Source: Patescibacteria group bacterium
GTDB taxonomy: Bacteria > Patescibacteriota > Minisyncoccia > Phycocordibacterales > JAKFXT01
Direction of reading: 5' to 3'
Length of the DNA: 62,095 nucleotides
Assembly: GCA_021731245.1 (NCBI GenBank)
Contig: JAKFXT010000005.1
Span: 1-62,095 of the forward strand
Position 1 is the stretch's first letter, and each line of letters begins with the position of its first letter. The notes below the pieces were generated by a model. That model made no database searches, had not been told where the DNA came from, and saw only the letters and a program-made list of their open reading frames with translations. The position numbers and the translations under genes were made by a program. Positions 16,339-45,595 of this stretch are shown here, one piece after another.

Positions 16339-16893
16339 ATGTTTTTATCAGATACAGACATAAAAAAGGCTGTTAAAAATGGTGAAATCGTCATTAAACC
16401 TTTTAATGAAAAGCAACTTCAGCCTGCAAGTTACGATATAACCTTAGGAAATAAGTTTGTTTTTCCTGTTGATTACAACGTTAGTTTCATAGATCCAGTA
16501 AAAAAGATTTTTCCAGAAACGAGAGAAATTACTATAAAAGAAAATGGTATTTTCGTTTTGCACCCAGGTATAAATGTTCTTGGTTACTCGACTGAATTTT
16601 TTGGTTCTGATGATTTTCTAATTCAACTTGGAGGAAAAAGCAGTCTCGCTCGCATAGGTCTATTGGTCCACAACACTGCTGGAATTATTAACCCAGGACA
16701 TTTTCTAAATGTTACTTTCGAGCTTTCGAATGCGGGGCACATACCAATCGTTCTTCGTCCAAACATGCCTATTGCTCAGATAACATTTTCCAAACTTACT
16801 TCTCCACCAAGCGTTAACTATAAAAAAGTGGGTAGATACGCAGGTAAAAACGACAAACACTTTGCTCCGCCGAAGAAACGTTCCAGTAAATAA
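16339..16893 (+). CDS. dcd: dCTP deaminase
   Basis: Contains MFLSDTDIKKAV..GEIVIKPF...QLQPASYDITLG and GGKSSLARIGLLVH. Confidence 0.8.
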   Translation: MFLSDTDIKKAVKNGEIVIKPFNEKQLQPASYDITLGNKFVFPVDYNVSFIDPVKKIFPETREITIKENGIFVLHPGINVLGYSTEFFGSDDFLIQLGGKSSLARIGLLVHNTAGIINPGHFLNVTFELSNAGHIPIVLRPNMPIAQITFSKLTSPPSVNYKKVGRYAGKNDKHFAPPKKRSSK

Positions 16894-16900
16894 TAAAATT

Positions 16901-17890
16901 ATGAAAAAAGAAAAAAAACATCCAGAATATCAGTATCTAGATCTTCTTAAAGAAATTTTAGAGAATGGTGATAGAAAAGTTGATCAGGGCACTGACGACG
17001 CTTCCTATAGTCTATTTGGCAAACAAATCCGTTTCGACCTCTCCGAAGGATTTCCTCTTTTAACTACGAAAAAAGTTTATTGGAAAGGCGTGCTCCACGA
17101 ACTTTATTGGTTTATGGCAGGAATGACCAATATAAAATATTTGGTAGATAATAATGTTCATATTTGGGATGATTATCCATATAGGATTTATAAAATAAAA
17201 AGCGGATTATCCGGCAAGAAACTTCTAACCAAAGAAGAATTTATAGAAAAAATTCATAATGATAAGAATTTTGCGAAGAAATGGGGAGAGCTTCCTAAGA
17301 TATATGGAGAATTATGGCGAAGTTGGCCAACTCGAACCAAAAGGACTATAGATCAGATTCAATGGGTAGTGGACGAAATAAAAAAGGATTCTAATGCCCA
17401 TAACGCGATAGTAAATTCTTGGAATCCAGAGTATCTCTATACTATGGCAGAGAAAAAAGACACTTCTTATTTTCCAATTTGTCACAACATGTATCAAGTG
17501 AACATTATAAAAGGTAGACTTTGTCTCAATTTATATCAAAGGAGCGCTGATATTTTTCTTGGGGTTCCTTTTAATATTGCCAGCTACGCACTTCTTACTA
17601 TTATTCTCGCTAAAATTTTAGGTTATAAACCGGGAGAATTTATTCACACTTTCGGCGATGTTCATATTTATGAGAAGCACTTAGATCAAGTAAAAGAACA
17701 ATTAAAAAGAAAACCGTTGCCTTTTCCTAAAATCAAAATAAACAAAAAATTAAAAAGCATTGATGACTTCAAGCCAGAGGATGTTATTTTAGAGAATTAT
17801 GAATCACACCCTCCGATAAAAGCAGAACTATCAGTTACGGGAGGATTTGGAACTTTTGATAGTAAAAGAAAAAACAAGAATAAAAAATAG
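16901..17890 (+). CDS. thyA: thymidylate synthase (ThyA) with an internal insertion
   Basis: Contains YLDLLKEIL, FPICHNMYQ and LYQRSADIFLGVPFNIASYALL. The ATG at 16901 is preferred to the listed 16862. Confidence 0.9.
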   Translation: MKKEKKHPEYQYLDLLKEILENGDRKVDQGTDDASYSLFGKQIRFDLSEGFPLLTTKKVYWKGVLHELYWFMAGMTNIKYLVDNNVHIWDDYPYRIYKIKSGLSGKKLLTKEEFIEKIHNDKNFAKKWGELPKIYGELWRSWPTRTKRTIDQIQWVVDEIKKDSNAHNAIVNSWNPEYLYTMAEKKDTSYFPICHNMYQVNIIKGRLCLNLYQRSADIFLGVPFNIASYALLTIILAKILGYKPGEFIHTFGDVHIYEKHLDQVKEQLKRKPLPFPKIKINKKLKSIDDFKPEDVILENYESHPPIKAELSVTGGFGTFDSKRKNKNKK

Positions 17891-17951
17891 ATATGATTTA
17901 ATGAATTTAGATTTAGAGGGGAATTACAAAGATAAATCTAAATTATTTACT

Positions 17952-19223
17952 ATGGCTAAAGAATACGAATATATTAAAAAACAAGACAAGAAGGTGTACG
18001 ATGCAATTTTAGGTGAAGAAAAAAGAGAGGCGGAAGGATTAGAGCTTATTCCATCAGAGAACTATGTCTCTCGTGCGGTGCGTGAAGCTAATGGTTCTAT
18101 TTTTACAAATAAATATTCTGAAGGTTACCCAGGAAAGCGTTATTATGGTGGGCAAACTTACACTGACTTAGTTGAAAGAATTGCAATTGAAAGAGCCTGT
18201 AAACTTTTCAAAGCCAAATTTGCAAATGTGCAAACTCACTCAGGGGCTCCAGCGAACATGGCGGTTTACGCAGGGCTCTTAAATCCAGGGGATACAGTGC
18301 TTGGAATGGATTTAAGTCACGGCGGACACTTAACTCATGGTCACCCCGTTACACTTTCTGCAAAAATATATCGCTTTGTCCGATATAAAATGAAAAATCC
18401 AGAAACTGGAGAAATTGATTATAAAGCGCTTCGCGAAACGGCTATAAAAGAGAAACCAAAAATTATTTTGGCAGGGTTTTCTGCCTATTCTCGCGAACTC
18501 GATTACAAAAAGTTTGTAGAAATTGCAAAAGAAGTGGGCGCAATAACAATGGCAGACATGGCGCATATTGCAGGATTAATTGCAGGAGGCGCCGTGAAAA
18601 ATCCATTCGATTATGGGTTTGATGTAATTACAACGACGACACACAAAACCTTTCGTGGTCCAAGGGGGGGGCTTATATTAATTCGCGACAGTGAAGAAAT
18701 TGCGCAGAAAATAAACAAGGCTGTTTTTCCAGGTCTTCAAGGTGGGCCTCATATGCACATCGTTGCGGCTAAGGCCATTTGTTTTGGAGAAGCTATGAAA
18801 CCATCTTTCAAAAAGTACGCTAAACAGATTTTGAAAAATGCTAAAGCAATGGAAGAAGTTTTCCGCGAAAATAAAATAAGAATGTTGGGTGGGGGAACTT
18901 CTAATCATCTTTTGTTAGTTGATGTGTTTGGTTCCCTCGGTATTACAGGTCGCGAAGCGGAAGTGGCATTGGACGAAGTAGGGCTTACTCTAAATATGAA
19001 TTCTATTGCCGATGACACAAGAAAGCCACTAGACCCTTCAGGAATTAGATTTGGAACACCGGCCATTACTACAAGAGGTCTTAAAGAAAAGGAGTGTAAG
19101 GAGGTTGCAGAAATAATGATTGAGACACTTAAAAATATAAAGGATTCTAAAAAGAAAAAAGAATTACGCGAAAGAGTAAGGAAGATTTGTAAGAAGTTTC
19201 CTATTCCCCAGAGATTTGTTTAG
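17952..19223 (+). CDS. glyA: serine hydroxymethyltransferase
   Basis: Contains LELIPSENYVS, YSEGYPGKRYYGG and TTTTHKTFRGPRGG. The ATG at 17952 (MAKEYEY) is preferred to the listed 17847. Confidence 0.9.
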   Translation: MAKEYEYIKKQDKKVYDAILGEEKREAEGLELIPSENYVSRAVREANGSIFTNKYSEGYPGKRYYGGQTYTDLVERIAIERACKLFKAKFANVQTHSGAPANMAVYAGLLNPGDTVLGMDLSHGGHLTHGHPVTLSAKIYRFVRYKMKNPETGEIDYKALRETAIKEKPKIILAGFSAYSRELDYKKFVEIAKEVGAITMADMAHIAGLIAGGAVKNPFDYGFDVITTTTHKTFRGPRGGLILIRDSEEIAQKINKAVFPGLQGGPHMHIVAAKAICFGEAMKPSFKKYAKQILKNAKAMEEVFRENKIRMLGGGTSNHLLLVDVFGSLGITGREAEVALDEVGLTLNMNSIADDTRKPLDPSGIRFGTPAITTRGLKEKECKEVAEIMIETLKNIKDSKKKKELRERVRKICKKFPIPQRFV

Positions 19224-19240
19224 TTGGTATAATTAAATAC

Positions 19241-19711
19241 ATGATAGAAGATGCGTTGGATGAGGTGCCTATATATCATCCGCTACTAAAAGTTAAACTA
19301 GAACATGTAAAAGTGATTCATTGTATTTTGTCGCATAAGGGCAAAATACTTCTAATACAGCGCAATCAAAGTATGCGTTATTACCCAGGGTATTGGAGTG
19401 GAGTTTGTGGCGTATTGGATGATCATGTGGAGATGCAGGATAAGGTCTTTCAAAAAATTGAAGAAGAAACAGGTCTTGGTAAAAAGGAAGTAAAAATAAT
19501 TAATCAAAAAAAACCAATAGAGTGTAAGGAGAAAATCTATGGAAAGGTTTGGGAAATAAACTCATTCTTAATCGAAGTTAATCCTAAGAATTTGCATTTT
19601 GATTTTAATTGTCAGGATCATGTTTGGGTCTCTCTTGAGGAGGCCCTGGAATACAATCTTCTTCCAGGAATGGGAGAAGTGCTCGAATCACTCTTTCCTG
19701 GTAAGCTCTAA
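19241..19711 (+). CDS. Nudix-like hydrolase (weak motif)
   Basis: GVLDDHVEMQDKVFQKIEEETGL approximates a Nudix box. The match is imperfect. Confidence 0.4.
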   Translation: MIEDALDEVPIYHPLLKVKLEHVKVIHCILSHKGKILLIQRNQSMRYYPGYWSGVCGVLDDHVEMQDKVFQKIEEETGLGKKEVKIINQKKPIECKEKIYGKVWEINSFLIEVNPKNLHFDFNCQDHVWVSLEEALEYNLLPGMGEVLESLFPGKL

Positions 19712-19723
19712 AATTGGGTATCT

Positions 19724-21400
19724 ATGATTAAACAAGAATTACAGAAACAGATTGCGAGAATTCTTAATATTCCTGAACCAGAAATACATCTGGAACATCC
19801 TGAGAATTTTTCTCATGGAGATTTTTCTTGCAATATCGCTTTAGTAAAAGCAAAAGAAGTCGGTGAAAATCCGAATAGTTTGGCGAAAAAATATGTTGAA
19901 AAACTTTCGGCGAGTAAATTAAACGATATTTCAAAAATAGAGGTGGCAGGACCGGGTTTTATAAATTTCCACTTATCTCGAGAATTTTTTGCTGACTCAA
20001 TAAAAGAAATAACTGAAAGCGAAAATTTTGGTGATAATAATTATTTAAACGGCAAAAAAGTGATGGTGGAATATACTGACCCGAATCCTTTTAAAGAATT
20101 TCACATTGGACACTTAATGACTAACACAATAGGGGAATCAATTGCTCGTTTATTTATAAAAAGTGACGCTGAGGTTAAAAAAGTTTGTTATCAAGGAGAT
20201 GTTGGTTTGCATGTTGCAAAAGCAGTTTGGGGGATGCAGAGAAAAAATACTGATAAGTTTTCTATAAAAGATTTAGCTGAAAGCTATGCTTTAGGAAACA
20301 AGGAGTATAAGGATAACGAAACTTCTAAAAATGAAATAGAGGAAGTAAATAAATCTCTATATAAAAGAGACGACAAAAAAACACTCTCTTTATACGAAAA
20401 AGGAAGATCATTGTCTTTGCAATACTTTGAAAAAATTTATCAAAAATTAGGAACTAAGTTTGATTATTATTTTTTTGAGAGTGAAACAGCTATTTTCGGT
20501 AAAAAAATGGTTGAAGAAGGATTGGGTAAGAATGTATTTGAAAAAAGTGAAGGAGCGGTGATTTATCCTGGGGAAAAACACGGACTTCATACTAGAGTTT
20601 TTATAAACAAGTTTGGGATACCAACGTATGAGGCCAAAGATTTGGGGTTGGCTAAATTAAAATATGATACTTTTTCATATGATAAATCAATTTCCGTTAC
20701 AGCGAACGAAATTACAGAATATTTTAAAGTTGTAAAAAGCGCCCTTTCTCAAATTGAATCGAAGCTTTCAGAAAAATTAATGCACATACCACATGGAATG
20801 TTGCGTTTACCAAGCGGGAAAATGTCTTCCAGAACAGGGGATGTTATTACGGCCCTTTCTTTAATTGATGAAGTAAAAGAAAAAGTTTTGGAAAAGATGA
20901 AAGATAGAAATATTAAAGATAAAAGTGAAGTGGCTGAACAAATCGCAATTGGTGCTATAAAGTTTTCAATTTTGAAACAATCACCGGGGAAAGATATTAT
21001 TTTTGATTTTGATAAATCAATTTCTTTTGAAGGGGATTCTGGGCCATATCTTCAGTACACCGCAGTGCGAGCAAATAGTGTTTTAGAAAAAGGGGATAAA
21101 TTTTCTCTAGGTAGATTTTTTGGTTTTAAGAAAGACAAAAGACCAAGTGAAGTCAGTAATATAGAGCGACTCTTATATAGACTGCCAGAAATAGTAGAAA
21201 GAGCTTGTAAGGAATACTCTCCACAGTATGTTGTCACTTACTTGTTAGAAGTGGCGGGAGCATACAATGCCTTTTATGGAAGTAATCAGATAATAGGAAG
21301 TGAGTATGAAAACTACTATTTATCAATTACTAAGGCGACAAAACAAGTGTTGGTTAATGGTCTTCAGGTTTTAGCTATAAAAACCCCGGAAAAGATGTAA
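19724..21400 (+). CDS. argS: arginyl-tRNA synthetase
   Basis: Has PNPFKEFHIGHL (HIGH region) and MSSRTG (KMSK-like). Length and domain order are typical of ArgRS. Confidence 0.9.
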   Translation: MIKQELQKQIARILNIPEPEIHLEHPENFSHGDFSCNIALVKAKEVGENPNSLAKKYVEKLSASKLNDISKIEVAGPGFINFHLSREFFADSIKEITESENFGDNNYLNGKKVMVEYTDPNPFKEFHIGHLMTNTIGESIARLFIKSDAEVKKVCYQGDVGLHVAKAVWGMQRKNTDKFSIKDLAESYALGNKEYKDNETSKNEIEEVNKSLYKRDDKKTLSLYEKGRSLSLQYFEKIYQKLGTKFDYYFFESETAIFGKKMVEEGLGKNVFEKSEGAVIYPGEKHGLHTRVFINKFGIPTYEAKDLGLAKLKYDTFSYDKSISVTANEITEYFKVVKSALSQIESKLSEKLMHIPHGMLRLPSGKMSSRTGDVITALSLIDEVKEKVLEKMKDRNIKDKSEVAEQIAIGAIKFSILKQSPGKDIIFDFDKSISFEGDSGPYLQYTAVRANSVLEKGDKFSLGRFFGFKKDKRPSEVSNIERLLYRLPEIVERACKEYSPQYVVTYLLEVAGAYNAFYGSNQIIGSEYENYYLSITKATKQVLVNGLQVLAIKTPEKM

Positions 21401-21447
21401 ATAAGCCCTTTTTGAGGGCTTAGCTAAACGTGATAGGATTTTTTAAT

Positions 21448-24400
21448 ATGGATGAAAAAGTGGAAAATAAAGGAAAAAGTGAACAAGCTCTGAAGGAAGA
21501 GGAAGTTTTGAAGTTTTGGAAGGAAAACAATATTTTTCAAAAAACACTAGAAAAAGAATCTCCTAAGGGCGAATTTATTTTCTATGAAGGACCACCGACA
21601 GCCAATGGTCGCCCCGGTATTCATCACCTAGAAGCGCGCTCTTTCAAGGATTTAATACCGCGTTTTAAAACTATGCAAGGCTATCATGTGCGCCGAAAAG
21701 CAGGTTGGGATACACATGGGCTTCCAGTGGAGCTTGAAGTTGAGAAAAAATTAGGACTTAAATCAAAAAAAGAAATCGAAAAATATGGAATTGCTGAATT
21801 TAATAAAAAGTGTAAAGAAAGCGTTTGGGAGTATATGGAGGAGTGGCAGAAGTTTACAGACAGGACTGGTTACTGGGTTGATTTGAATGATGCCTATGTA
21901 ACTTATGAGCCTTCATATATAGAGTCACTTTGGAATATAGTTTCTGAAGTTGATAAACAAAAATTACTTTATAAAGATTATAAAGTGGTGCCATGGTGCC
22001 CTAGATGTGGAACAGCACTTTCGTCACATGAACTAGCTCAAGGTTATCAAGATGTAAAAGACTTGTCGGTGTATGTGAAATTCGAATTAGTTGATGAGCC
22101 GGGAACTTTCTTTTTAGCTTGGACAACGACACCATGGACTCTTCCTGGGAATGTTGCGCTTGCCGTTGGTGAAAATATAAAGTACGCAAAATATAATTGG
22201 GCCGGAGAGAATTTTATTATGGCAAAAGAACTTGCCCATAAGTACCCAGGACACATGGTTGAAGAATACCTAGGTAAAGACCTTGTTGGTAAAAAATATA
22301 AACCACTTTATCCATTCTTAGAAAAATTACTTCCAGAAAATCAAAAAGAGAATTTAAAAAATGCTTTCAAAGTTTATGTAGCAGATTTTGTAACCACAGA
22401 AGATGGAACGGGAATTGTGCACACAGCAGTAATGTATGGGCAAGATGACTTTGAACTTGGAACAAAAGTAGGGCTTCCAAAACATCATTTAGTTGATGAA
22501 ACAGGACATTTTGTAAAAGGAACAGGATTTTTGGAAGGGAGATTCGTTAAAGAAGAAGATAAAAGCGGAAAACCAACATTGGCACTAGATATAATAGAGG
22601 ATCTTACAGAGAAAAATTTTTTCTCTAATAAAGAGAATTATTCTCATAGTTACCCATTTTGTTGGCGCTGTAAAACTCCACTCATATATTACGCGCGCGA
22701 CTCTTGGTATATAAAAATGACTGACCTTAAAGAAAAGTTAGTTAAGGAAAACGAAGGAATTAATTGGGAACCAAAACATATAAAAGAAGGGAGATTTGGA
22801 GAGTGGCTGAATGGTATAAGAGATTGGGCTATTTCTCGTGAGCGTTATTGGGGGACACCACTCCCTGTTTGGAAAAGTGAAGATGGGCAAGAACAGCTTG
22901 TTATTGGCTCTGTTAATGATTTAAAAAAATATTCTCCAAAATCGGGTAACGAGTATTTTGTAATGAGACATGGGGAGGCGGAATTTAATGTTAAAGGAAT
23001 ATTAAACGGTAAACAAAATAAAGAAAATAAACTTACTGAAAAAGGTCGTAAAGAAGCAGAAGATTCTGCAAAAAAAATTAAAGATTATAATATAGATTTA
23101 ATTTTTACATCTCCACTTCAAAGAACAAAAGAAACTGCCATTATTGTGGCTAGTAGTATAAATATAAAGGAGGGGGATATTGTTGAAGATAAAAGACTTG
23201 CTGAATTGCAGTTTGGCTTATATGAAGAAAAAACTGTTCAGGAGTATCACTCTTTTTATAAAAATGACGATGAAAGATTTAGTGTGGCGCCCAAAGGAGC
23301 GGAAACACTTTCTGATGTATGGCAACGTGTAGGTGATTTTCTTTATGAAATTGAAAGTAAATATAAAAATAAAAAAATATTAATCGTTACTCACGGAGAT
23401 CCAGCTATGACCATGGAGTCTATTTCTGAAGGGATTTCCCCAAGTTCTACAAGCTATAGTCACATTAATAGTCAAAAATATATAAAAACAGCTGAGGTTC
23501 GTAAAATTGATTTCGTACCTCTTCCTCATAATGAAAATTATGAATTAGATTTGCACCGTCCATATGTAGATGAAGTGGTTTTGGAAAAAGGCGGAAAGAA
23601 ATTATACAGAGTAAAAGAGGTGATGGATGTTTGGTTTGACTCTGGTGGTATGCCGTTTGCAGAGGACCATTATCCTTTTGAAAATAAAGAATGGATTGAT
23701 AAAAAAGGATTTCCCGCAGACTTTATATGTGAAGCGATAGATCAAACTCGTGGTTGGTTTTATACCTTGCATGCAGTTGGGAATTTAATGGGACGAGGAA
23801 AAGCATTTAAAAATGTAATTTGTTTGGGTCACATCCTTGATAAGGAAGGAAAGAAAATGTCTAAGTCTGTGGGTAATGTCATAAGTCCGTGGGAAATGAT
23901 TGACAAATATGGGACTGATGTTTTGCGTTTTTGGATGTATAGCGTGAATGCGGCGGGGGACTCTAAGAACTTTGATGAAAAAACTGTACAAGAAGTTTCT
24001 AATAAAGTATTTAATTTACTTGCGAATACCGCCCGTTTTTATGAAATGTATGCACCTGAATATTCTGGAAATAATAAAATTGAATCTAAAAATGTTTTGG
24101 ATATATGGATAATCTCACTTCTTAATAAATTAATTGCAGATGTTACAAAAGGACTTGAATCATATGATGCGCTTTCCGCTAGTCGCCCCATTAGAGATTT
24201 TATAGCAGAATTTTCTCAATGGTATATACGTCGTTCCAGAGACAGATTCAAAAGTGAAAATATAGAAGATAAAAATTCCGCAATATTAATAACGCGCACA
24301 GTACTAATAACACTTACAAAGTTACTTGCCCCGTTTTCTCCATTTTTTGCTGACGATTTGTATAGAAACTTACGAAATGAAAAAGAAGAGGAAAGCGTCC

Positions 24401-24963
24401 ACCTATCATCTTGGCCCGAAATAATTGAATTAAATTCAACCAATGAAAATTTGATTAGTGAAATGAAAATAGTCAGAGACTTCGTTACCTTAGCCTTAGA
24501 GCAAAGATCCAAGGTAAATATAAAGGTTCGCCAGCCACTTGGAGAATTGAAAATTAAAAATCAAGATTTGAAAGGAAGGGAGGAATTGTTGGTTCTTATA
24601 AAAGATGAAATTAATGTAAAGAAGATTGTTTTTGATGAAAATTTAGAAAAAGATGTTTTGCTTGATTTTAGTATCACACAGGAATTAAAAGAAGAGGGAG
24701 TGGCAAGAGATGTTATCCGTATGATTCAAGATAAACGTAAAGAAGCCAATCTTGTTCCACAAGATGAAATTATAGTTTCTGTAAGTGGTAAAAAATACAT
24801 TGTTGATGCTCTGTTTAAATTTCAAGATGAAATTCTTAAAGTTACAAATTCTAAAAAACTCAATTTGGGAAGCGGAGAGCTTTCTGGAGAAGGGGAATAT
24901 AGTTTAGAAATATCAAAAATTCCACCAAAGGCGGATTCGTCCTCAGGCGAAAAAAATAAATAA
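21448..24963 (+). CDS. ileS: isoleucyl-tRNA synthetase (type 2-like) carrying an internal histidine-phosphatase (PGAM-like) domain
   Basis: Contains PPTANGRPGIHH, WCPRCGT, CWRC, DWAISRERYWGTPLPVW, DLHRPYVD and KMSKS. The insertion spans about aa 506-700 of the listed ORF (nt 22945..23529) and carries RHGE, SPLQRTKETA and VTHGD. Confidence 0.9.
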   Translation: MDEKVENKGKSEQALKEEEVLKFWKENNIFQKTLEKESPKGEFIFYEGPPTANGRPGIHHLEARSFKDLIPRFKTMQGYHVRRKAGWDTHGLPVELEVEKKLGLKSKKEIEKYGIAEFNKKCKESVWEYMEEWQKFTDRTGYWVDLNDAYVTYEPSYIESLWNIVSEVDKQKLLYKDYKVVPWCPRCGTALSSHELAQGYQDVKDLSVYVKFELVDEPGTFFLAWTTTPWTLPGNVALAVGENIKYAKYNWAGENFIMAKELAHKYPGHMVEEYLGKDLVGKKYKPLYPFLEKLLPENQKENLKNAFKVYVADFVTTEDGTGIVHTAVMYGQDDFELGTKVGLPKHHLVDETGHFVKGTGFLEGRFVKEEDKSGKPTLALDIIEDLTEKNFFSNKENYSHSYPFCWRCKTPLIYYARDSWYIKMTDLKEKLVKENEGINWEPKHIKEGRFGEWLNGIRDWAISRERYWGTPLPVWKSEDGQEQLVIGSVNDLKKYSPKSGNEYFVMRHGEAEFNVKGILNGKQNKENKLTEKGRKEAEDSAKKIKDYNIDLIFTSPLQRTKETAIIVASSINIKEGDIVEDKRLAELQFGLYEEKTVQEYHSFYKNDDERFSVAPKGAETLSDVWQRVGDFLYEIESKYKNKKILIVTHGDPAMTMESISEGISPSSTSYSHINSQKYIKTAEVRKIDFVPLPHNENYELDLHRPYVDEVVLEKGGKKLYRVKEVMDVWFDSGGMPFAEDHYPFENKEWIDKKGFPADFICEAIDQTRGWFYTLHAVGNLMGRGKAFKNVICLGHILDKEGKKMSKSVGNVISPWEMIDKYGTDVLRFWMYSVNAAGDSKNFDEKTVQEVSNKVFNLLANTARFYEMYAPEYSGNNKIESKNVLDIWIISLLNKLIADVTKGLESYDALSASRPIRDFIAEFSQWYIRRSRDRFKSENIEDKNSAILITRTVLITLTKLLAPFSPFFADDLYRNLRNEKEEESVHLSSWPEIIELNSTNENLISEMKIVRDFVTLALEQRSKVNIKVRQPLGELKIKNQDLKGREELLVLIKDEINVKKIVFDENLEKDVLLDFSITQELKEEGVARDVIRMIQDKRKEANLVPQDEIIVSVSGKKYIVDALFKFQDEILKVTNSKKLNLGSGELSGEGEYSLEISKIPPKADSSSGEKNK

Positions 24964-25550
24964 TGTCGTATCATCACTACGAAAGCGAGTGTTTCATACT
25001 TTCCTCAATGCCTGAAAAAGAAGCGAATCGCGCTTACATTCTTTTTTCAGAAAAATTAGGATTAATTTACGCTAAAGCCCAAGGTGTTTCTATGCCGTCT
25101 TCAAAACTTAGAGGAAGCCTGGAGCCAATTGCGAAAGCAAGAATCTCTTTGATTAAAGGAAAAGAAGTTTGGAGAATAGTAGGAGCGCAAGAAAGCGTTT
25201 CTCTCTGGCAACAATTAAAGGGAAGCAGGGAAGAACTTTCCATTTTCACTCGTCTTACAACTTTATTAAGGCGTTTGGTGATTTCTGAAGAGTATCACGG
25301 AGAACTCTTTAAAATATTAGAAGAGTGTTTTGAGGCGATATCAGAAAAGAATACATCGGAAAAATTAATAGCAATTGAGTTGGTTGCAGTTTCTCGTATA
25401 TTGCATCACTTAGGCTATTTTACTTTGAAAGATGATTATCAGTCCTTTTTTAATATTCCTTTGTCTAAAATTGAAAGTGATTATGTCATTGGTAAAAAAA
25501 GAAGCTTGGTCGCTGATATTAACCAAGCCCTAAAAGAGAGTCATCTTTAA
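24963..25550 (+). CDS. recO: DNA repair protein RecO
   Basis: The OB-fold N-terminus (ECFILSSMPEKEANRAYILFSEKLGLIYAKAQG) and a length of 195 aa fit RecO. Confidence 0.7.
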   Translation: MSYHHYESECFILSSMPEKEANRAYILFSEKLGLIYAKAQGVSMPSSKLRGSLEPIAKARISLIKGKEVWRIVGAQESVSLWQQLKGSREELSIFTRLTTLLRRLVISEEYHGELFKILEECFEAISEKNTSEKLIAIELVAVSRILHHLGYFTLKDDYQSFFNIPLSKIESDYVIGKKRSLVADINQALKESHL

Positions 25551-42127: not shown

Positions 42128-45100
42128 ATGAATTTATTAAAATCAAAAAAGCTTTTGAAAGGCATTGCATCAGCTGCAATTAGTCTTTCAATGGTAGTTG
42201 CCTTTGCAGCTCCAGTTCAAGCTATAACTCAAGCCGAAGCTACGGCTATCATTACAGCTCTTGGATTAAGTGGCTCACAAGCTGCTGTAATACAAGCTCT
42301 TGTTTCTGGTAGTACAAGTGGAGGAACAGTCACTGGTTCACTTTCAATGGATCTCCAAATGGGGATGACGAATGAACAAGTAAGAACACTTCAGATGATT
42401 CTAAACAAGTCTGCTAGCACCCAAGTCTCTTCAAGTGGAGCTGGTGCTCCAGGTTCAGAATCTAACTACTTTGGTGCTAAAACCAAGGCAGCGGTTATGA
42501 AGTTTCAATCTCAAAATGGTATCAGTCCTGTAGCAGGATACGTAGGTCCAAAGACTCGCGCAGTCCTTAATACAATGACTGGTGGAACAGTTACTCCAGG
42601 AACACCAAGTACTCCATCAGGGTCTGGTCTTACTGTGATGTCAGCTTCACAACCAACAGCCTCTCTTGCACCAACAAGCGCTGCACGCGTTCCATTTACA
42701 AAAGTAACTCTTACAGCATCAAATGATGGAGATGTTACAGTAAACGGAATTGTTGTTGAAAGAACAGGTTTGGCACAAGACGCTGTATTTGCTGGAATCG
42801 TTCTTCTTAATGAAGAAGGTATTCAGCTCGGTATAGCAAAGACACTTAACTCAAATCACCAAACAACAGTAGGTGATACATTTGTTGTTAAGGCAGGCAC
42901 ATCAAAAACATATACGATCGCAGGTAACATGGGTTCATCCCTTGAAAACTTCGCAGGTCAAGTCGCAGCCCTTTCAGTTGTTGGTGTTAATACATCAGCT
43001 ACAGTTAACGGCTCGCTTCCTATAACTGGTGCCGCTCACACAATTAACGCATCTCTTACAATCGGTACTGCAGCTATGACTTCATCATCTTTTGATCCAG
43101 CCACTGCAGCTACTAAAGAAATCGGAACCACAGCTTACAAGTTCAGTGGTGTCCGCGTAACAGCAGGTTCTGCTGAAAAGGTTCGCCTATGGTCTGTTCG
43201 CTGGAACCAAACTGGTTCTGCAGGGTCAGGTGACCTTACAAACATTAAGGTCTATGTAGACGGAACAGCTTATGACACAGTAGTGTCATCAGATGGTAAG
43301 TACTACACAGCAACCTTCGGTTCAGGAATTGTCATTGATAAAGGTCTTGCAAAAGACATTTATGTTCAGGGAGATATCGTAGGATCAAGCTCAGCTGCTA
43401 GAACAGTTCAGTTTGATATCTATAAAGCAACAGATATCTACATGACAGGTGAAACTTATGGTTACGGTATTACAGGAACTCAAAGTCAAAACGGTACCGC
43501 TGGTGCAACTGGTTCACAGTTTACTGCAGGCACTCCTTTCTTTGATGGTTCAGCCGTTACTGTTTCAGCTGGTTCTGTAACATCTGTTACTAAAGCTCTC
43601 TCAGTCCCTGCGCAAAACATCGCAGTTAATGTTCCAAATCAAGTACTTGGAGGATATGAAGTTGATCTCAAAGGAGAAGCAATTTCAGTTCAATCTCATG
43701 TATTTACTATCGCTAGTACAACGGGTAGTGGAACTGGCCTCTTAACTAACGTTTCCATCTTCGATGAAAACGGAGCAGTTGTCGCTGGCCCAGTTGACGC
43801 TACTTTCACTAGCGCTTCGGTTCAGACAGTAACATTCACTGACACTATTACTTACCCTGTAGGCAAAAAGGTCTACACTCTTAAAGGAAAGGTAGCTTCA
43901 ACAATAGGAAATGGTGGAACATATATTGTTTCAACTACTCCTTCTTCAGGATGGACAAGTGTTACCGGTCAAACAACTGGCAATACCATTACTATCAGTA
44001 ATGGAGCCTTGTCTATGAACACTATGACAGTAAGAGCCGCTGCTTTGGGTGTAAGTGTTTCAACACAACCTTCAGCTAGAACTGTTATTGCTGGTTCACA
44101 AGGATTCACTTTTGCGAACATCCTCTTGGATGCTTCACAATCAGGTGAAGATGTAAGACTATCTTCAATTCCACTTGAGCTCACTTATGCGACAATGGTG
44201 GTAACTGAAGTGACTTCATGTCAACTCTTTGATGGCACAACTGCTTTGAACACAGGTTCAAATGTGGTTAATCCAACAGGTGCATCAGTTGCATCTGCAA
44301 CATTTACATTTGATCAATCTTTGACAATTCCAAAAGGAACTGTGAAGTCATTGGCCGTTAAGTGTAATCTTGCAAGTTCAGTTTCATCATCCGACACTCT
44401 TTCATGGGGTATTGATGGTTCACCTTCAATGACACCTACAGGAGTTACTTCAGGAAATGAAGTTACAGAAGCTGTTACAGCTTCTGCTGGTCAAACTATG
44501 ACAGTTGCAGGAACTGGTTCATATACTGTTACAGGTGATGAATCACTTCTCTACAAGATGTCTCAAGCTGGTGTAAACAATGTTGAGCTTGCTCGACTAC
44601 GCTTTACAGCAGGAGCATCTGAAGATGTTTCTTTGAGACAAATTGCTCTTCAATTGGGCAATATTGCTTCAAACTCACCTGCAGATCTTCTTAATCAAAG
44701 AGTTACATTGTGGAATGGCACAACTCAGATTGGTACAGCACAATTCGGTGTTGGATCAGCTCCTGATAATGCTACTTCTACTCTATTGTCCCCAGCTCCA
44801 TTAATTGTTGCTGGAGAATCAATACTCATTACTGTTAAAGGAGACCTAACGGCTCAAAACACTAATGATGGAACACCGGGCGCATTCCTTTCTGTTACTT
44901 ACGATGGTGATAACGTCGGAATTAATGGTAACTATGCTCAAGGAGTTTCTTCACAAGCAAACATTAGTTCTGGAACAACCGCTGATGTTACTACTGCTGG
45001 AACAAGAATCTTCAGAACAGTGCCTTCTATTGCTGTAACAAGTAATGGCGGAACACTTTCAGCTGGAGGTGACTTGTACAGATTTGTGGTTACTAACCCA

Positions 45101-45595
45101 AACAGTAGAGATGTAGTATTCCAGAAGTTCTCAATGTCAGTTGCAACCAGTGGTGGAGCAACAAACGGATTCATACTCTTCGGAGATGGAATTGCGTTTA
45201 ACAACTCAACTTCTACAGTAAATAACGAAACTGTTATTGAACTTAGAGCCACAGGTACTTCACAAGCTCAAATTGTTCCTGCTAATAGTTCAAAGACATA
45301 TGTCTTAAGAGCTACAACAGCAGTGGACACAGCTGCAGTTTCTGAACAAATTACATTGGCACTTCTAGCGGACACATCTTACCCAGTTGGAATAGGAGCT
45401 TTGATGGGTTCTGTTGCTCAAGTTGAAACAAATGAGGCCAACATAGATAATATGATTTGGTCACCGTTCTCAACAACAACACCTGTTGCTACAGCAGATA
45501 CCCAAACTGTTCAAGATTGGACAAATGGATATGGTATGCCTGGATTCCCAAGCAATACTTCATTCCCAACCCAGACTTGGACTCGTGCTAACTAA
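42128..45595 (+). CDS. 1155-aa secreted cell-surface (S-layer-like) protein with an N-terminal peptidoglycan-binding domain
   Basis: Has a signal peptide ending AAPVQA and a PG_binding_1-like segment (VRTLQMILN...YFGAKTKAAVMKFQSQNGISPVAGYVGPKT). About 1000 aa of Thr/Ser/Gly/Ala/Val-rich beta-type sequence follow, and a strong terminator ends the gene. Confidence 0.6.
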   Translation: MNLLKSKKLLKGIASAAISLSMVVAFAAPVQAITQAEATAIITALGLSGSQAAVIQALVSGSTSGGTVTGSLSMDLQMGMTNEQVRTLQMILNKSASTQVSSSGAGAPGSESNYFGAKTKAAVMKFQSQNGISPVAGYVGPKTRAVLNTMTGGTVTPGTPSTPSGSGLTVMSASQPTASLAPTSAARVPFTKVTLTASNDGDVTVNGIVVERTGLAQDAVFAGIVLLNEEGIQLGIAKTLNSNHQTTVGDTFVVKAGTSKTYTIAGNMGSSLENFAGQVAALSVVGVNTSATVNGSLPITGAAHTINASLTIGTAAMTSSSFDPATAATKEIGTTAYKFSGVRVTAGSAEKVRLWSVRWNQTGSAGSGDLTNIKVYVDGTAYDTVVSSDGKYYTATFGSGIVIDKGLAKDIYVQGDIVGSSSAARTVQFDIYKATDIYMTGETYGYGITGTQSQNGTAGATGSQFTAGTPFFDGSAVTVSAGSVTSVTKALSVPAQNIAVNVPNQVLGGYEVDLKGEAISVQSHVFTIASTTGSGTGLLTNVSIFDENGAVVAGPVDATFTSASVQTVTFTDTITYPVGKKVYTLKGKVASTIGNGGTYIVSTTPSSGWTSVTGQTTGNTITISNGALSMNTMTVRAAALGVSVSTQPSARTVIAGSQGFTFANILLDASQSGEDVRLSSIPLELTYATMVVTEVTSCQLFDGTTALNTGSNVVNPTGASVASATFTFDQSLTIPKGTVKSLAVKCNLASSVSSSDTLSWGIDGSPSMTPTGVTSGNEVTEAVTASAGQTMTVAGTGSYTVTGDESLLYKMSQAGVNNVELARLRFTAGASEDVSLRQIALQLGNIASNSPADLLNQRVTLWNGTTQIGTAQFGVGSAPDNATSTLLSPAPLIVAGESILITVKGDLTAQNTNDGTPGAFLSVTYDGDNVGINGNYAQGVSSQANISSGTTADVTTAGTRIFRTVPSIAVTSNGGTLSAGGDLYRFVVTNPNSRDVVFQKFSMSVATSGGATNGFILFGDGIAFNNSTSTVNNETVIELRATGTSQAQIVPANSSKTYVLRATTAVDTAAVSEQITLALLADTSYPVGIGALMGSVAQVETNEANIDNMIWSPFSTTTPVATADTQTVQDWTNGYGMPGFPSNTSFPTQTWTRAN

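Follow-up and report, generated by a model that had tools for sequence, protein, structure and literature searches.

Few known proteins are as conserved as the aminoacyl-tRNA synthetases, and new catalytic domains within their cores are rare in bacteria. The closest described relative of the case reported here is the isoleucyl-tRNA synthetase (IleRS) of SR1, a lineage within the candidate phyla radiation (CPR). Kantor et al. 2013 (PMC3812714) mention in one sentence that this enzyme has three inserts, a NUDIX domain and two domains of the phosphoglycerate mutase (PGM) family; in the passages of the paper that deal with it, the remark stands without an analysis of insertion sites, catalytic residues or distribution. 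Here we describe the ileS gene of a Patescibacteria group bacterium (Minisyncoccia, Phycocordibacterales, JAKFXT01), located on contig JAKFXT010000005.1 of assembly GCA_021731245.1. The window is the whole stretch that was analyzed, 62,095 nucleotides read on the forward strand. Its ileS gene is predicted to encode a type-2 IleRS in which a single histidine phosphatase domain is nested.

As far as the passages on SR1 go, the two enzymes are alike in that a CPR IleRS is broken in frame by domains of the histidine phosphatase (PGM) superfamily. They differ in the number and kind of the inserts: the SR1 enzyme has three, whereas the window enzyme has one, placed at the zinc-knuckle site, and no NUDIX domain. 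The lineages also differ, SR1 in one case and a Paceibacteria-type bacterium in the other. The RAAC4 OD1 genome of the same paper carries an insert at the same site as the window gene (site A below; locus L018), which is not mentioned in the passages of the paper at hand.

The nested domain and its host enzyme

The ileS gene is a single open reading frame, and the frame is continuous across the insert, as a first-pass annotation of the window had stated. The features of the gene and of the insert are listed here; conservation refers to 118 insert-bearing homologues.

21430 to 24963, + strand: ileS, type-2 isoleucyl-tRNA synthetase with nested phosphatase, one open reading frame of 1177 amino acids
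22936 to 23535, + strand: whole inserted segment relative to insert-free IleRS2, residues 503 to 702, linkers included
22945 to 23508, + strand: histidine phosphatase domain proper, residues ~506 to 693 (Pfam match 22957 to 23445)
22966 to 22974, + strand: RHG motif with R513 and the nucleophile H514; R and H invariant in 118 of 118
23122 to 23124, + strand: R565 in SPLQRTKETA, second phosphate-pocket arginine; 118 of 118
23203 to 23205, + strand: E592, putative general acid; E in 113 and D in 5 of 118
23392 to 23394, + strand: H655 in LIVTHGD, second catalytic histidine; 118 of 118

The segment that the first-pass annotation had assigned to a histidine phosphatase (22945 to 23529, residues 506 to 700) matches the Pfam family His_Phos_1 (PF00300) by itself, with an E-value of 3e-34 and 118.8 bits. 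The same family is found at residues 510 to 672 when the whole protein is searched (E 1e-32, 113.8 bits; the gathering threshold is 21.7). The motifs quoted in that annotation, FVMRHGEAEFN, LTEKGRKEA, TSPLQRTKETA and LIVTHGD, are all present where it had put them. The length of the domain matches that of full free-standing homologues, which have about 190 residues, begin with Met and end just past the AEVRxL strand. AlphaFold2 predicted a confident structure for the insert alone, with a predicted local distance difference test (pLDDT) of 95.9 and a predicted template modelling score (pTM) of 0.92. The full-length protein was predicted with a pLDDT of 91.1 and a pTM of 0.85; the connectors of the insert are confident (~94 for FVPLPHN) and low scores occur only at residues ~671-680. 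In a Foldseek search the nearest folds were those of PspA, PhoE/YhfR, GpgP and CobC (probability 1.00, TM 0.73-0.77). The structures of dPGM enzymes aligned less completely (TMt 0.60-0.67) and are longer.

The Pfam score above threshold, the catalytic set R-H-R-E-H and the alpha/beta fold place the domain in branch 1 of the histidine phosphatase superfamily. The earlier label "PGAM-like" holds at this superfamily level, but it does not hold for the mutases proper: the fold is nearest to PspA and PhoE, and the mutase models remained below their cut-offs (dPGM_arch 91.9 vs 225 bits, pgm_1 47.2 vs 81.7, GpmB 63 vs 261). Membership in the PspA family (85.1 vs 350 bits) or the CobC family (TIGR03162, 85 vs 162.9 bits) was also rejected. 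The SixA model gave a weak match (40 bits vs a cut-off of 74.5), and the second-best NCBIfam match to the insert was PRK07238 (87 bits vs a cut-off of 326). Sequence E-values to PspA reach 2e-17, and a riboflavin-pathway HFP is also among the neighbours. Judged by these comparisons, the domain is a histidine phosphatase without an assigned specificity and not a recognisable mutase. With mean pI values of 6.2-6.8 the phosphatase domains range from acidic to neutral, and this is more in keeping with an enzyme for small molecules than with a protein that binds RNA.

Conservation of the catalytic residues extends beyond the positions listed above. N520 is present in 114 of the 118 homologues. When 133 domains from all of the hosts and sites described below were compared, 131-132 of them retained the four core residues. 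The second copy (ValA2) of the valyl-tRNA synthetase (ValRS) P0388 is degenerate and has lost R, R and H. The mean identity of the 118 homologues to the window protein is 43% in the insert and 60-70% in the body. Because the core residues are invariant although the insert diverges faster than the body, the data point to selection for catalysis, and the phosphatase is very probably active.

The synthetase body, which surrounds the insert, has the following landmarks:

21430 to 22935, + strand: IleRS N-terminal body, residues 1 to 502, with the first Rossmann half, the CP1 editing domain and the connective peptides to the first knuckle half
21616 to 21627, + strand: GIHH (G63 to H66), class I signature in its non-canonical G/AXHH form in place of HIGH
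22873 to 22896, + strand: degenerate first zinc-knuckle half, KSEDGQEQ where relatives have CxxC
23512 to 23532, + strand: conserved C-terminal connector FVPLPHN, absent from free-standing phosphatases and insert-free IleRS2
23536 to 24963, + strand: IleRS C-terminal body, residues 703 to 1177, with the second Rossmann half, KMSKS, the anticodon-binding domain and the type-2 C-terminal domain
23584 to 23601, + strand: degenerate second zinc-knuckle half, EKGGKK
23854 to 23868, + strand: KMSKS signature, residues 809 to 813; K809, M810, S811 and K812 invariant in the 118 homologues

The Pfam family tRNA-synt_1 (PF00133) matches in two stretches that flank His_Phos_1 (E 3e-118), followed by Anticodon_1 and DUF5915 (PF19302). 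The NCBIfam ileS equivalog TIGR00392 is likewise matched in two stretches around the insert, with 879.8 bits vs a cut-off of 621.4; the N-terminal body corresponds to model positions 7-506. The best matches in the PDB were P. megaterium IleRS2 (8c8w and related entries) and T. thermophilus IleRS (1ile), and the IleRS1 structures scored far lower. These matches bear out the type-2 identity that had been proposed earlier, and on these grounds the encoded protein is a type-2 IleRS. H65 and H66 do not vary among the 118 homologues, and G63 reaches at least 90% conservation; the G/AXHH signature thus appears to be carried by the entire insert-bearing clade. This signature has been tied to mupirocin hyper-resistance in IleRS2 (PMC10485003). 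The models of the mupirocin-resistance enzymes were rejected (MupB 794 vs a cut-off of 1900, MupA 774 vs 1900), as was ileS_w_GNAT (NF040702; 290 bits vs a cut-off of 1999). The CP1 editing blocks TTTPWTLP and GTGIVHTA are conserved, and H331 and D340 are invariant in the 118 homologues. With GIHH, KMSKS and the editing blocks intact, we take the gene to be the cell's housekeeping IleRS, and the synthetase looks fully functional. No second IleRS gene and no second phosphatase gene were found within the window. The true start of ileS is likely the ATG at 21448 (M7), because M7 is invariant among the homologues.

The insertion site was located by alignment with the structure 8c8w. Residues 19-502 of the window protein align to 11-478 of 8c8w, and residues 703-1090 to 483-869, so that about 200 residues stand for about 4 of P. 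megaterium IleRS2. This agrees with the first-pass count of ~195 extra residues between VIGSVNDL and DLHRPYVD. The insert is flanked by WGTPLPVW...GSVNDL and ELDLHRPYVD. Because both flanks carry CxxC in relatives (P. megaterium and the homologues P0008, which keeps CEKC, and L083-85), the insert sits at the tip of a zinc-knuckle hairpin. Both CxxC pairs are kept in 29 and both are lost in 86 of the 118 homologues, and 3 retain the first only. The HUP core of P. megaterium IleRS2 comprises residues 40-168 and 513-632 (PMC10485003). Since this core resumes at 513 and the insert lies at ~480 in the same numbering, the site belongs to the connective-peptide region and not to the Rossmann core. 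In the nomenclature of yeast IleRS, which distinguishes the connective-peptide (CP) core, ED/CP1, CP2 and CP3 (PMC11685878), we infer that the site lies in the final one of these elements, ahead of the second Rossmann half. The earlier statement that the domain is inserted in the catalytic body is therefore correct in that the insert lies between WGTPLPVW and DLHRPYVD, but the position is outside the Rossmann core. The described IleRS element INS was rejected as the source of the segment, since INS sits in the C-terminal ARD2 domain. The connectors have the form KSGN.Y on the N-side and F.PLPHN on the C-side; N507 is conserved in 117, F695 in 115, P699 in 117 and H700 in 116 of the 118 homologues.

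One explanation to be weighed at this point is that the insert is an artefact or a removable element, that is a chimera, a frameshifted join or something like an intein or intron. The database relatives that are fragmented, the frameshifts in two related loci (L001, which is fragmented by one, and L091) and the H-N dipeptide at the C-junction (PLPHN followed by E) would fit such an origin. However, the gene is covered by Logan contigs of four independent runs, all drinking-water metagenomes from one study, and these show 0 differences, joints or indels. The organism is present in these runs at low depth (~3-9x); contigs span the left border in 4 of 4 runs and the right border in 2. The frameshift or assembly join at the borders, which the first-pass annotation had named as a possible flaw, is thereby excluded. 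Another outcome that it had named, the lack of a His_Phos match, is excluded as well. There is also no GC break across the insert. The junction was compared in a GTDB scan with one genome per species, in which the best 80 loci were examined. The insertion site is identical in 80 of 80 (the N-terminal body ends at 498-502 and the C-terminal body resumes at 703-704), and in 70 of these the frame stays open for 1050 amino acids or more. The statement that there are no intein-like junctions also stands: an H-N dipeptide occurs at the C-junction, yet neither border has a Cys, Ser or Thr nucleophile at the splice position. The N-junction varies (K/K/S/G/N) without a conserved nucleophile, PHN at the C-junction is followed by E, K, D or A, and the fold is that of His_Phos and not of Hint. 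An artefact or removable element is effectively refuted.

Short matches of up to 544 amino acids had suggested a split gene; this was rejected, as they come from a search length filter of 1.75 x query. IleRS fragments that cover the C-terminal half and begin near residue 630 have the same explanation. The locus L091 (GCA_018815185.1, JAHIYK010000063.1) was rejected as a naturally split ileS. Here a single-base frameshift within the phosphatase, at ~1340-1380, gives two called genes; the gene order, IleRS, RecO, DUF11, class II aminoacyl-tRNA synthetase and AI-2E, is that of the window. The frameshift is probably a sequencing error, and it may also reflect a pseudogenised phosphatase or a split enzyme.

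Distribution, hosts and origin of the domain

The first-pass annotation had regarded the combination as an unusual fusion. This was not confirmed: the insert is instead a lineage-wide trait, carried by at least 396 GTDB species throughout an entire class of ultra-small bacteria. All of the 120 best full-length homologues (55-63% identity, 1113-1335 amino acids) combine PF00133 with PF00300. The names among the best 80 loci include Nomura-, Kaiser-, Zambryski-, Yonath-, Taylor- and Wolfebacteria, Minisyncoccia and Paceibacterota, together with the published RAAC4_OD1_1. In Paceibacteria the insert is stable and near-universal.

Mapping of the retrieved proteins onto the numbering of the window IleRS defined three insertion sites. 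Site A (~500/700) holds ~280 domains. Site B (~754/762) is occupied in the proteins P0246 and P0338, and site C (~875/890, within the anticodon-binding domain) in P0338. The latter is an IleRS of 1419 amino acids with intact zinc knuckles, in which one His_Phos domain follows the DxWFESG block and the other lies inside the anticodon-binding domain. The two domains differ, one being like the ValRS type and the other like the IleRS/free type. The same architecture occurs at the same length of 1419 amino acids on six contigs, the longest of which has 1.06 Mb. In P0313 (Candidatus Peribacteria) and P0314, site A is occupied by a tandem pair.

The domain is also found in ValRS. In a search seeded with P0248, a ValRS with four phosphatase domains, 71 of the 120 ValRS matches carry 1-4 His_Phos domains, and the proteins reach 1626 amino acids. 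Examples are P0248, P0386, P0417 and P0411, on contigs of up to 1.37 Mb; the named carriers are Gracilibacteria and Peregrinibacteria. Most of the ValRS domains lie in the loop that is homologous to site A, and some at a second site past PQWF(V/I)M. A third host is TsaC (Sua5/YciO/YrdC) of the t6A pathway, which in P0300 (387 amino acids) is fused to a C-terminal His_Phos_1 domain; the metagenome scan contained no second fusion of this kind. Among the 138 first-time representatives of the 150 matches listed in the search with the insert, the host bodies were IleRS (88), ValRS (1) and TsaC (1), and there was no other. A scan of viral contigs gave distant giant-virus matches only.

Some relatives carry further domains. 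Three IleRS proteins of 1306-1335 amino acids (P0143, P0204 and P0233) have a C-terminal HD domain, which was rejected as an alarmone hydrolase because it is a generic HDIG match only. The IleRS P0358 (1066 amino acids) has, besides His_Phos, a GNAT domain at site B, and its editing region contains a domain of the IS200-like Y1 transposase / REP-associated tyrosine transposase type.

The relationship of the domains was examined in a rough neighbour-joining tree without support values. The ValRS-embedded domains form one clade, which is ~27% identical to the IleRS type. The IleRS site-A domains are intermixed with free-standing proteins, and a tree of this kind leaves the monophyly of site A undecided. 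The topology suggests several acquisitions plus intragenic duplications. The association arose repeatedly, in that ValRS and the other IleRS sites were entered independently.

The genes next to ileS are conserved. ArgRS is encoded upstream in 54 and RecO downstream in 61 of the 80 loci, and the window has the same synteny:

19724 to 21400, + strand: argS, conserved upstream operon partner
24963 to 25550, + strand: recO-like gene, conserved downstream partner, whose start overlaps the ileS stop

A metagenome contig from another CPR lineage (L082, positions 2441-7805) contains the same genes in another form: argS, a free-standing His_Phos gene of 188 amino acids, an insert-free ileS of 929 amino acids, and recO. 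The stop of the phosphatase gene overlaps the start of ileS (ATGTTAA). This is the operon of the window with the phosphatase as a separate cistron. Such a Rosetta-stone pattern suggests both the origin of the insert and a conserved link in co-expression, and we infer that a phosphatase gene of the free-standing kind was the source of the insert.

The domain has a patchy distribution in ValRS, with at least 21 gains or losses on a tree of the body only. Two contigs from the same sample (ERZ25074195; L095 and L096, with a coverage of ~4.6x and ~20x as suggested by their names), which we take to represent co-occurring strains, encode ValRS bodies that are 97-99% identical and have the same neighbours. 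At positions 4383-4969, L095 has a His_Phos cassette of 587 nucleotides with degenerate knuckle halves around it; L096 has an intact zinc knuckle of 74 nucleotides at 4383-4456. The exchanged region is far more diverged than the flanks. For this reason the difference would be due to exchange of the cassette by allelic recombination and not to a fresh insertion. This shows that valine charging does not require the phosphatase domain and that the domain is polymorphic at present.

Other genes of the window were also noted. A cluster for dTMP synthesis lies directly upstream of argS-ileS (16339-19711) and contains genes for a dCTP-deaminase-like protein, thymidylate synthase, SHMT and a NUDIX protein. 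SHMT is found upstream in 24 of the 80 related loci. The NUDIX gene (19241 to 19711) was rejected as a partner of the phosphatase, as it is near ileS in 0 of 80 loci and resembles a pyrimidine dNTP diphosphatase. An open reading frame of 1155 amino acids at 42128-45595 has only a match to PG_binding_1 (peptidoglycan-binding).

Possible function of the phosphatase

The best explanation of the data as a whole is that the protein is a bifunctional IleRS-phosphomonoesterase with a substrate tied to the charging step; we consider this reading evenly balanced between right and wrong. The phosphatase would be a self-contained module with its N- and C-termini side by side. Owing to the adjacent termini, it could bud from the loop without disturbing the synthetase, in the same way as the CP1 editing domain. 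The catalytic set R513, H514, N520, R565, E592 and H655 is complete, and the polypeptide would then be two enzymes. A phosphomonoester, or a terminal phosphoanhydride, would be hydrolysed via phospho-His514 with E592 as the general acid. The substrate may be a phosphorylated nucleotide species that is made or met at charging, and AMP, pyrophosphate (PPi) or a related nucleotide is the leading guess. A link to charging is suggested because each of the associations, with the IleRS, ValRS and TsaC hosts and with the ileS operon, concerns a tRNA-pathway enzyme that is ATP-dependent and forms an adenylate. Support also comes from the nucleotide-type phosphohydrolase domains in relatives, namely HD in the three IleRS proteins mentioned above and NUDIX in SR1, the latter according to the passages on SR1 in PMC3812714. 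That the phosphatase is functionally tied to the synthetase reaction, and is not a passenger, seems to us somewhat more probable than the opposite. The narrower proposal of a small-molecule nucleotide or PPi as the substrate is tentative, and we think it rather unlikely to be correct.

Several points weigh against a bifunctional enzyme of this kind. The equivalog models for dPGM, PspA, CobC, GpmB and SixA were all below cut-off, and no substrate is assigned by them. Hydrolysis of AMP beside a synthetase is without obvious benefit for a nucleotide scavenger, and we know of no documented hydrolysis of PPi by a branch-1 enzyme. The insert-bearing RAAC4 OD1 has a membrane pyrophosphatase, as the passages on this genome in PMC3812714 indicate; a literature search on the absence of pyrophosphatase in Patescibacteria gave nothing useful. 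The TsaC fusion is represented by one contig of 3.7 kb. The operon-neighbour arrangement was seen once only, and there was no adjacent phosphatase at the inspected insert-free valS and ileS loci. The list of hosts was obtained from searches seeded with synthetase-embedded domains, and bias is possible. Finally, the patchy and strain-polymorphic domain of ValRS behaves like an accessory trait that is dispensable for aminoacylation.

The main rival explanation is that an ordinary metabolic phosphatase, acting for example on phosphoserine, a sugar-phosphate or a cofactor precursor, is a passenger in a permissive loop of an essential and constitutively expressed gene. In tiny, regulator-poor genomes the host gene would guarantee its expression and retention. 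This explanation draws on the fact that the nearest neighbours in structure and sequence (PspA, PhoE, GpgP, CobC and the riboflavin-pathway HFP) are metabolic enzymes, and on the acidic pI. It would account for the ValRS domain being unneeded by the synthetase, and the diverged tandem copies could be several specificities riding together. The same protein also takes up unrelated domains, namely GNAT at site B, Y1_Tnp in the editing region and HD at the C-terminus. What a passenger does not easily explain is the choice of hosts: all of those found are IleRS, ValRS or TsaC, or else the gene overlaps ileS in an operon. There are at least five attachment sites, all in adenylate-forming enzymes of the tRNA pathway, which is hard to achieve by chance. 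In addition, the conserved connectors and the pTM of 0.85 for the full-length model suggest a fixed docking geometry and not a loose tether. We regard a passenger as possible but not probable. Still less probable is a purely structural module, in which the domain only takes over the stabilising or docking task of the zinc knuckle and is a pseudoenzyme or a ligand sensor. The loss of the zinc ligands alongside the insert in most homologues, and the occurrence of the phosphatase cassette and the intact knuckle as interchangeable alleles in the ValRS pair, are in line with this view. However, the nucleophile, the two arginines, the other histidine and the acid persist across ~130 diverged domains, with the degenerate copy in P0388 as the exception, and a purely structural role would not preserve them. 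The homologues with both CxxC pairs, moreover, keep their zinc ligands together with the insert. This explanation is barely plausible.

Two further rivals place the substrate on a macromolecule. The domain could heal or protect the 3'-end of tRNA: before charging, it would strip the CCA end of a blocking 3'(2')-phosphate or, in concert with HD or NUDIX partners, of a pyrophosphate, and thereby counter toxins such as toxSAS. Pyrophosphorylation of the CCA end by toxSAS blocks aminoacylation (bioRxiv 10.1101/2021.04.30.441581; PMC11559606), and the enzyme whose connective-peptide region holds the insert is one that handles this end (PMC11685878). The relatives with additional HD and NUDIX phosphohydrolase domains (for NUDIX, the SR1 passages of PMC3812714) fit this idea, and the patchiness, the variation in copy number and the cassette polymorphism within a population resemble conflict-driven traits. 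On the other hand, the domains are net negative in charge, protection in cis would be limited to tRNA-Ile or tRNA-Val, the HD domain is of the generic HDIG type and not of the alarmone-hydrolase type, and the tandem copies are left unexplained. The stability and near-universal presence of the insert in Paceibacteria are also unlike a typical defence trait. To our knowledge no member of the histidine phosphatase superfamily acts on RNA 3' ends. We hold a role in tRNA healing to be improbable. The extended form, in which the phosphatase and its sister HD and NUDIX domains are a tRNA-end repair or immunity module against toxSAS that spreads among CPR strains as a cassette swapping with the zinc knuckle of IleRS and ValRS, is a long shot. 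Alternatively, the domain could be a protein phosphatase that guards the synthetase and undoes an inhibitory phosphorylation, by Ser/Thr/His kinases of the Hip-like or another kind, of this enzyme or of a partner. Protein phosphatases occur in the superfamily, PGAM5 and Sts-1 among them, and kinase toxins are known to inactivate aminoacyl-tRNA synthetases (HipA acts on GltX, HipT on TrpS). The weak SixA match and the accessory, polymorphic behaviour in ValRS would agree with such a role. But no linked kinase was found in the neighbourhoods examined, and the free-standing homologues and structural neighbours are small-molecule enzymes; a protein phosphatase is very improbable.

Whatever the substrate, the breadth of the insert in IleRS, the independent entries into ValRS and other IleRS sites, the multiplied copies and the continuing exchange between co-existing strains together speak for a real biochemical connection of phosphate-ester hydrolysis with tRNA charging in organisms whose metabolism is minimal. 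The substrate could reveal a new step of by-product clearing or proofreading, a function in tRNA repair or against toxins, or a general way in which reduced genomes house enzymes inside essential genes. The annotations of these proteins read no more than "class I tRNA ligase family protein" or "histidine phosphatase family protein, partial", so that a PGM-family domain embedded in them can lead metabolic reconstructions of CPR genomes astray.

Comparison with known systems

Literature searches found no paper that analyses this architecture. The form with a single domain at site A appears to be undescribed, and so do its breadth and catalytic conservation. The same applies to the counterpart in ValRS, to the use of several sites and of tandem arrays, to the operon precursor and to the cassette polymorphism between strains.

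The insert shares its fold, its size of ~190-210 amino acids and the R-H-R-E-H set with PspA (4ij5/4ij6), PhoE/YhfR (1h2e/1ebb), GpgP Rv2419c (4pz9) and CobC (6nru/6e4b). These are free-standing enzymes with defined metabolic substrates, whereas the insert is nested in another enzyme. A combination with a nucleic-acid enzyme is known from the Rv2228c-type RNase H / acid phosphatase (PRK07238), in which a CobC/PhoE-like phosphatase is joined to RNase H. This likeness to the window protein is limited by the mode of joining: the Rv2228c type is an end-to-end fusion, while the phosphatase of the window is nested in IleRS.

On the side of the synthetase, the window enzyme and its clade share the GxHH signature, the type-2 architecture and DUF5915 with the G/AXHH IleRS2 enzymes (PMC10485003). 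The characterised enzymes of this group (D. radiodurans, S. griseus and the P. megaterium mutants) differ in that they are without a phosphatase insert (PMC10485003). The ileS_w_GNAT family is a precedent for an IleRS with an extra enzyme domain, although this domain differs from that of the window. The CP1 editing domain of IleRS, ValRS and LeuRS sets the precedent for a complete hydrolytic domain that buds from a connective-peptide loop. Unlike the phosphatase described here, CP1 is universal and acts on the mis-made products of its own enzyme.

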